A DNA stretch of 64,000 nucleotides, taken from NCBI RefSeq assembly GCF_053078305.1, contig NZ_CP166879.1; one strand, written 5' to 3'. Made by a program: the position numbers and the translations under genes. The notes beneath the pieces were generated by a model. The model saw only the letters and a list, made by a program, of their open reading frames with translations. It ran no database searches and was not told the origin of the DNA. This document shows, piece by piece, positions 31,552 to 33,175 of this stretch (the first letter of the stretch is position 1; each line of letters starts with the position of its first letter).

Positions 31552-33175
31552 ATGAAAATTGGAACTGTGGCAGGTACTAACGACAGTATAACGACAATCG
31601 CAACAAATGATATGGTGCAAGAGCATGTTACCAACTTCACTAAAGAACTGTTTGGGTATATTGCAAATGGTATAGGTGATGATATATCAAGTATTGCCAG
31701 GACAATGCTCGGTGAGGTTGTGGAAAAAAATAGATGATTGGCAAATAGAACGGTTCCAACAATCTATTCAAGATGACAAAATATCATTTACCATACAAAC
31801 GGATCATTCAGAAAAATATAGTATGCTATCGGGCATGCGTGCCCATATTCTACGTAGGAATAATAGTTATCAGTTTATTGTGACAATTAATAGTAAAAAT
31901 TACGGTTGCCCTCTTGATGATACCGATATTAATTGGTGCAGCATTGTTTATTTACTTAATAATATGACAGTAAATGATAATGCTAATGATGTTGCAGTTA
32001 CTGAGTCGTACAAACCCATCTGGAACTGGAAAATATCGCAATACAATGTATCTGATATTAAATTCGAAAAAATTATAAAACCCCAGTTCGCTGACAGAAC
32101 CTATTTCTCCAATTGTTCACCTGTTGATCCCACAAGTACCAGACCAACCTATTTTGGTGATACCGATGGCTCAGTTGGTGCAGTTTTGTACGCGCTTTTT
32201 GCAACGGGACATTTGGGAATCATGGCTGAAGGAGAAAATTTCCTTAGCCAGTTGCTTAATATAGAAGATGAAGTTCTCAATGTATTGCTAAGGGAGAACT
32301 TTAATGAGCAACTTGATACTAATGTTAATACAATAATCAGTATCCTGAACAGAAGAGACATTATTTTAGAAAGTCTTCAGCCTTATTTAGTTATTAATAA
32401 AGGCGCAGTGACGCCATGTACGTTTTTGGGTGACCAAACCGGCGATCGATTTAGTAATATCTGTGGCGATCAATTTATCATCGATTTGTTAAAATGCATA
32501 ATGAGCATCAATGATAACGTTCATGTATTAGCTGGAAATCATGAAACGAATTGCAATGGTAACTATATGCAGAACTTCACGCGTATGAAACCACTTGATG
32601 AGGATACCTACGCTGGGATAAAAGATTATCCTGTATGTTTCTATGACTCCAAATACAAAATAATGGCAAATCATCATGGGATAACTTTTGATGATCAGCG
32701 AAAACGTTACATTATAGGACCGATAACGGTCTCTATTGATGAAATGACCAATGCTCTCGATCCGGTCGAATTAGCGGCAATTATTAATAAAAAGCATCAT
32801 ACTATAATTAATAGTAAAAAGTTTAAAACTAGCCGGGCTATCTCTTGTCGATCCTTTAATCGTTATTTTTCTATTTCGACAGATTACAGACCTAAACTTG
32901 AAGCACTATTAGCATGCTCACAAATGTTAGGTATAAATCAAGTTGTTGCACATAACGGTAATGGTGGAAGAGAACGCATAGGTGAAACGGGGACAGTTTT
33001 AGGTCTTAACGCCCGTGACAGTAAACATACGGGAAGAATGTTCAGCATGCATAATTGCCAAATTAACCCTGGTGCGGGGCCTGAGATAACCACTCCCTGG
33101 AAGTCTTACCAACATGAAAAAAACAGAAATGGACTTATGCCTTTGATTAGAAGGCGCACAATGTTACAGCTCTGA
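31552..33175 (+). pseudogene. yhiJ: DUF4049-family protein YhiJ, disrupted by a +1 frameshift in an A7 tract (31724..31730)
   Basis: ORFs 31552..31737 (frame 1) and 31676..33175 (frame 2) overlap and together span ~541 codons; removing one A gives a continuous ...GEVVEKIDDWQIERFQ... reading; GAGGT RBS before 31552. Confidence 0.6.

Follow-up and report, generated by a model that had tools for sequence, protein, structure and literature searches.

The question raised by the 64,000-nucleotide stretch of contig NZ_CP166879.1 (RefSeq assembly GCF_053078305.1) analysed here, called the window throughout, is why yhiJ, the second gene of the paralogous pair yhiL and yhiJ, is split between two reading frames at a run of seven adenines. 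The run may mark a mutation that has inactivated the gene, an error of the assembly, a switch by which the gene is turned on and off, or a site of recoding at which a full-length protein is made all the same, and we regard it as rather probable that yhiJ is here a young, strain-private pseudogene produced by a homopolymer frameshift.

The gene begins with an ATG at 31552 on the plus strand, as do all yhiJ features described below, and a Shine-Dalgarno-like GAGG (31542-31545) is found 6 nt 5' of the start codon, both being read directly from the sequence. The frameshift site is the A7 homopolymer at 31724-31730, which falls in codons 58-60 and is A6 in intact alleles. In the original frame the site reads GTG GAA AAA AAT AGA TGA, and the premature TGA at 31735-31737 closes a 5' fragment of 61 codons (31552-31737 in the list of open reading frames, ORFs) whose product ends in EVVEKNR and is deposited in GenBank as the hypothetical protein KFD78214.1 (JD73_03455). 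In frame 2 the same letters read TGG AAA AAA ATA GAT GAT TGG, that is WKKIDDWQIERFQ..., and the remainder of yhiJ in this +1 frame (31721-33175, identified from the ORF list and by a Pfam profile match) stays open until the TGA at 33173-33175 and encodes the whole DUF4049 domain, corresponding to residues 194-503 of the restored protein. The sequence-only reading from which this analysis started had described an A7 frameshift with a frame 1 stop at 31735-31737, in agreement with both the sequence and the ORF list, and had given frame 2 a length of 499 codons, which is correct in that the ORF is open to 33175, but the count of 499 starts from an upstream GTG at 31676 and from the tryptophan at 31721 it is 484 codons. 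It had furthermore predicted that removing one A restores about 540 codons, and deletion of one A does give a full-length YhiJ of 540 aa, which matches Pfam DUF4049 (PF13258) with 582 bits (E 4e-175, gathering cut-off 25 bits) and shares 96% identity, at 100% coverage, with the main cluster of 540-aa YhiJ proteins. Downstream of the lesion, the gene callers of the source assembly report just an ORF of 446 aa that starts with the ATG at 31835.

Concerning the ancestral state of the tract, yhiJ was found in 4,283 of 5,426 RefSeq complete E. coli genomes and is missing from about 21%. A 96-nt query centred on the tract and containing A7 has no perfect match in the RefSeq complete genomes, and the 95-nt A6 version of that context has 1,522, which is the outcome of the comparison of tract length across strains that had been proposed as a check. 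In the same genomes there is likewise no perfect match for A5 in the window/K-12-type context, nor any perfect 96-nt match for A7 in the other major (ATT) yhiJ allele. The A6 span is present in 59 of 59 full-length rows from an evenly spread sample of 60, and an identity-band estimate over 4,134 genomes, which is inexact owing to queries that were not the same length by one base at their ends, gives about 36-37 genomes with A5 and about 0 with A7. Every intact orthologue examined has A6 at the tract or, in O157:H7, the interrupted form GAAAAAG (A5G, GAAAAAGTA) in an intact gene. Both halves of yhiJ are moreover parts of a single well-conserved YhiJ, with a chance pattern excluded, and A6 is the ancestral and nearly universal state.

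The A7 allele of the window is in turn private to one assembly. By exact-sequence look-up the 61-aa fragment is found on one contig only, JPQG01000001.1 of GCA_000736735.1, whose yhiJ locus is 100% identical to 21552-41737 of the window, and the restored 540-aa protein has no exact match in the same look-up. The contig belongs to E. coli strain 48, a subAB2-3 Shiga-toxin-producing E. coli (STEC) isolate from roe deer (PMC5323612). Strain ET350 is intact at yhiJ, collinear with the window across the whole 64 kb and 98.98% identical to it, and the nearest intact allele, that of TB06051, differs from the window in yhiJ by one single-nucleotide polymorphism (SNP, at 32873) and the extra A, so that the lesion is either recent or not real. 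Contigs sharing an identical 557-aa YhiL ORF were considered as belonging to the same strain and rejected, since they carry an ATT-type yhiJ allele with A6.

The explanation that we favour is that strand slippage during replication, which is the most likely mechanism, added one A to the A6 run in codons 58-60 on the terminal branch leading to strain 48. A ribosome starting at the normal position would then enter a frame that ends three codons later and release the 61-aa peptide, and the metallophosphatase-like DUF4049 domain would not be made from the normal start, which is what would render the gene a young pseudogene private to this strain; YhiJ function would be lost, and the extra A would exist in the organism and not just in the assembly. 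The gene is dispensable, as follows from its absence from about a fifth of the genomes noted above, from its disruption by IS5 in one other genome (H16) and from the fact that its paralogue is dead in K-12. Dispensability is also consistent with the loss of yhiJ in an IS5-mediated 20.8-kb deletion during laboratory evolution (PMC11633386), and the sole functional claim found is that the Keio yhiJ knockout does not grow on myo-inositol (PMC3423039).

The same tract has been broken in other lineages. Other tract lengths were sought by exact look-up of the peptides that they would predict, and yhiJ haplotype backgrounds were grouped at 3 SNPs or fewer, the window being included in the A7 count. 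A5 was found in the K-12-like haplotype of yhiJ, in 3 or more further haplotypes (peptides P0003, ending ...VEK*, on 178 contigs, and P0020) and in the ATT allele, where the peptide P0017 (...EKLMIGK*) occurs on at least 1,000 contigs, in 3,112 index blocks and in 36 RefSeq complete genomes. A7 was found in three ATA-type haplotypes, one of them K-12-like (P0018; the 22 contigs read stem from many separate sequencing runs, the platforms of which were not checked), and in three ATT-type backgrounds (P0006 and P0012, 7 contigs read, 6 + 1). A K-12-type N-terminus with an ...EKN* end (P0021), indicative of A7, is found on 5 contigs, the DNA of which was not fetched and which are left out of the background count, and A4 with a K-12-type N-terminus (P0022) on 3 short contigs. 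This places A5 in at least 5 and A7 in at least 7 yhiJ haplotype backgrounds, A7 being rare in all of them and non-A6 alleles together amounting to about 1% or less of genomes, and it should be mentioned that in some of the A5 and A7 assemblies many genes around yhiJ are broken too, a visible sign of proneness to error, so that the true number of events is lower. Some 59-aa matches to P0020 (L046-L049) were discounted as A5 alleles, the genes being cut by contig ends. The 36 RefSeq complete genomes with the A5 ATT allele share one haplotype, and their yhiJ is called 'frameshifted' by the Prokaryotic Genome Annotation Pipeline (PGAP); together with the contigs from many independent runs, they indicate that genuine changes of the tract occur. 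This lineage (loci L025-L033) includes FORC_069 (NZ_CP023061.1, 292977-294598), in which yhiJ is 'frameshifted' by A5 and yhiL is a pseudogene as well, so that both paralogues are dead there. The A5 allele of FORC_069 and its relatives resembles the lesion of the window in that the same tract is broken by a one-base change in a dispensable, AT-rich gene that looks horizontally acquired, but the change in the window is +1 (A7) and not -1, and it is confined to a single draft assembly instead of being fixed in a lineage. The tract at codon 58 is thus a minor hot spot of slippage, lying in a gene that is AT-rich and dispensable.

The upstream paralogue yhiL (29680-31290, plus strand), which combines DUF6860 with DUF4049, is intact in the window according to the ORF list, encodes 536 aa matching PF13258 with 557 bits, is collinear with intact orthologues and has the same length as its ET350 orthologue. 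In the RefSeq annotation of MG1655 it is yhiL that is a 'frameshifted' pseudogene and yhiJ that is intact, so the remark in the sequence-only reading that the intact and broken members are swapped relative to K-12 fits both genomes. The K-12 lesion is a 1-nt deletion, namely of the T of GAAGAAAATAAATG (MG1655 locus L006, 3005-4611, equivalent to window position 30873), which fuses two A runs into A7, and close to its 3' end the gene shows a separate difference of 3 nt that keeps the frame. The K-12 allele is likewise a 1-nt frameshift within the pair, but it arose by loss of a T between A runs and is not a pure change of homopolymer length. The comparison shows that decay of the yhiJ/yhiL pair has proceeded independently from one E. 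coli lineage to another.

It may however be asked whether the extra A is in the organism at all, since a homopolymer error in sequencing or consensus building would mean that strain 48 truly has A6 and an intact yhiJ and that one A was over-called, and this explanation, although we consider it doubtful, carries real weight. Residual errors of long-read assemblies cluster in homopolymers, and one such error per 64 kb fits early long-read assemblies. The assembly of strain 48 is probably PacBio-only and hence of this type, as made likely by its 1.76-Mb contig (2014) and by the use of PacBio single-molecule real-time (SMRT) sequencing on sister strains in the same laboratory. Several facts further weigh against a genuine inactivating mutation, namely that the A7 allele occurs in one assembly only and no second sequencing of strain 48 was found, that yhiJ has no secondary decay downstream which would prove a long-dead gene, and that an N-terminally truncated product could conceivably still be made from an ATG at 31823, 31835 or 31679 (+1 frame). 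An artefact would also account for the RefSeq complete genomes being without an exact 96-nt A7 match in either the window/K-12 context or the ATT context of the L003 type, and several of the public A5 and A7 assemblies (L009, L012, L013, L015, L019) have the many broken neighbouring genes typical of error-prone long reads. The surrounding sequence nonetheless speaks against such an error and shows that homopolymer errors are not widespread in the assembly, since the alignment with ET350 over 64 kb has 9 gap openings, 8 of them intergenic, and the A in yhiJ is the sole coding one. Out of 63 complete coding sequences of ET350 mapped to the window, 61 are intact, the exceptions being yhiJ and chuA, and among the homopolymer tracts counted (at least 6 nt for A/T and 5 nt for G/C; 105 in the window) none of about 100 other coding ones disagrees with ET350, while the intergenic A9 at 28114-28122 has the same length in the independent TB06051 assembly. 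Furthermore, 11 of the 105 tracts are in yhiJ and yhiL, giving a random error a chance of about 3-10% of falling in this pair, whereas real frameshifts survive preferentially in dispensable genes, and the tract changes known from the many independent runs (platforms not checked) and from the 36 curated complete genomes likewise speak for mutation. The other exception, chuA (226-2208, plus strand), encodes a TonB-dependent haem receptor and has an amber codon at position 432 of 661 (1519-1521, CAG to TAG relative to ET350), the 95-nt context of which has no perfect match among 2,236 RefSeq complete genomes with chuA. The change is a second one in the window that is private and inactivates a gene, and it makes genuine private inactivating mutations plausible in strain 48. 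Weighing both sides, we lean towards the extra A being a real mutation. As an observation in its own right, the A9 run at 28114-28122, which lies between yhiN and yhiM, is polymorphic in length: ET350 has A7, two metagenome/SRA contigs have A8, and TB06051 shares A9 with the window.

If the extra A is real, the split could still be functional, either because the tract is a phase-variable contingency switch, kept so that reversible slippage toggles YhiJ within populations, or because the split is only apparent, full-length YhiJ being made after a +1 shift of the ribosome or slippage of RNA polymerase on A7. The notion of a switch stems from the recurrence of A4, A5 and A7, that is of changes in both directions, in many unrelated backgrounds, and YhiJ may furthermore be an effector-like phosphatase, a kind of protein for which phase variation is sometimes seen in other bacteria. 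As in the contingency loci of Haemophilus, Neisseria, Campylobacter and Helicobacter, the frame is set by the length of a mononucleotide tract close to the 5' end, which differs by +1 or -1 between strains. Mononucleotide simple sequence repeats (SSRs) of contingency loci are typically about 8-9 nt or longer, however, whereas the yhiJ tract is 6 nt in the ancestor and 7 nt in the mutant, is stable within clades and has rare variants (the 1% or less given above), with no sign of reversion or of selection for maintenance of the repeat. In the K-12-type context 1,522 A6 alleles stand against 0 with A7 and 0 with A5, the A5 ATT allele is confined to one haplotype, and the repeat itself is not conserved, as the intact GAAAAAG allele of O157:H7 demonstrates. 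The presence of other tracts of A6 or longer in yhiJ is no argument either, being simply due to its GC content of 34-38%; these include a run of A6 at 32067 and, near the 3' end of the gene, a native A7 that keeps the frame (33117-33123, CAT GAA AAA AAC), which has the same length in ET350 and implies that yhiJ tolerates A7 elsewhere without disruption. A switch is therefore very unlikely, and of the three options that the sequence-only reading had offered, slippage pseudogenisation and sequencing error remain, but the on/off site is unsupported given the short tract, its stability within lineages and the interruption in O157:H7. It seems equally improbable to us that the codon-58 tract is a low-frequency selected on/off hot spot, the at least 12 independent backgrounds then reflecting not neutral decay but an adaptive process in which a Wip-like metallophosphatase is silenced time and again and is possibly also reactivated; if this were true, silencing at the hot spot would relate to particular hosts or niches. 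Recoding is brought to mind by prfB, with its +1 frameshifting, and by the slippage systems of Thermus dnaX (A9), insertion sequence (IS) elements and Shigella mxiE, in which, as in yhiJ, two overlapping ORFs are joined at a slippery A run, and A7 would indeed let tRNA-Lys re-pair from AAA (31726-28) to AAA (31727-29). RNA polymerase slippage on A/T runs also rises with run length (PMC5574713), which counts in its favour. In contrast to these systems, yhiJ has no conserved split (no orthologue has the two-ORF arrangement), no slow 0-frame codon (the codon following the slippery AAA is the common AAU, neither a stop nor rare), no correctly spaced Shine-Dalgarno sequence and no stimulatory structure. 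In prfB-type frameshifting the Shine-Dalgarno sequence is found about 3 nt upstream of the slippery P-site codon, but the Shine-Dalgarno-like GAGG of yhiJ ends 8 nt before it and is normal coding sequence in all alleles; there is likewise no stable downstream or local RNA structure (z = -0.6), and scans for Rfam families, promoters and terminators and RNA folds around the site gave nothing relevant. The run of 7 nt is not conserved and is shorter than the about 8-9 nt or more of known cases of transcriptional slippage, and in many bacteria selection against such slippage shows itself at about 9 nt (PMC1088944). In addition, rescue of YhiJ needs a 1-nt deletion, whereas slippage on A/T runs in E. 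coli gives insertions and deletions are rarely homopolymer-associated (PMC5574713). Frameshifting by -1 on A_AAA_AAU was considered as well and rejected, as the -1 frame meets a TAG at once. Recoding is accordingly extremely improbable in our view.

As to what would be lost with yhiJ, the YhiJ and YhiL paralogues are 32-36% identical to each other, and the homologue search made here placed them in Escherichia, Shigella and E. albertii alone. Their genes lie in a low-GC segment between yhiM and yhiI, and the yhiL segment of K-12 overlaps H-NS-bound 'promoter islands' (PMC3661553). An alignment of DUF4049 proteins (A1) contains the invariant motifs YFGDTDG, LGDxTGDR, LAGNHE, HHG and H467xG469, and profile matches were obtained to Metallophos (17.5 bits, below the cut-off of 21.5) and to the Legionella family T4SS_Wip of NCBIfam (15.1 bits, below the cut-off of 300). 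A sequence search of the PDB with YhiJ gave no match. The AlphaFold2 model of YhiJ has a mean predicted local distance difference test (pLDDT) score of 55, rising to 70-94 in much of the core (about 190-470), and its only significant fold matches in the PDB are WipB and WipA, at E about 1e-4 and template modelling (TM) scores of 0.28-0.44 for what is a low-confidence model. These Legionella Dot/Icm effectors, which are metallophosphatases of the phosphoprotein phosphatase (PPP) fold, are the closest structural relatives, and DUF4049 may share with them its motifs of the GDxDG, GDxxDR, GNHE and HHG types, but the first motif of DUF4049 is without the canonical histidine and the sequence matches are all below curated cut-offs. 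DUF4049 is probably a metallophosphatase of the PPP-like kind, uncharacterised and confined to Escherichia and Shigella, an assignment to be taken as a lead and not as a classification.

A few other features of the window should also be mentioned. Matches to Rfam include a shuA/chuA 5' untranslated region (UTR) thermoregulator (197-228, plus strand, gathering-score match) upstream of the nonsense-bearing chuA, the AgrB antisense RNA (7296-7379, minus strand) and the small RNA (sRNA) ES036, or CssrF (15377-15419, minus strand, gathering-score match). The segment 6695-7626, which contains arsC and an adjacent small ORF, is about 93% identical to ET350 as against about 99% in the flanking genes, and this suggests that it is a recombination patch. 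In the intergenic region between yhhJ and hicA, at 38490, the window is one copy short of the 14-bp unit TGATGTCATACTAT, which is tandemly duplicated with slight variation in ET350.

The split yhiJ probably belongs with the ordinary homopolymer-indel frameshift pseudogenes of E. coli. For annotators it means that the 61-aa JD73_03455 and the 446-aa ORF downstream of it belong together as fragments of a single gene, and it furthermore calls for caution, since homopolymer frameshifts seen in a single assembly are easily over-read as biology. For the gene itself it means that breakage recurs at the A6 run close to its 5' end.
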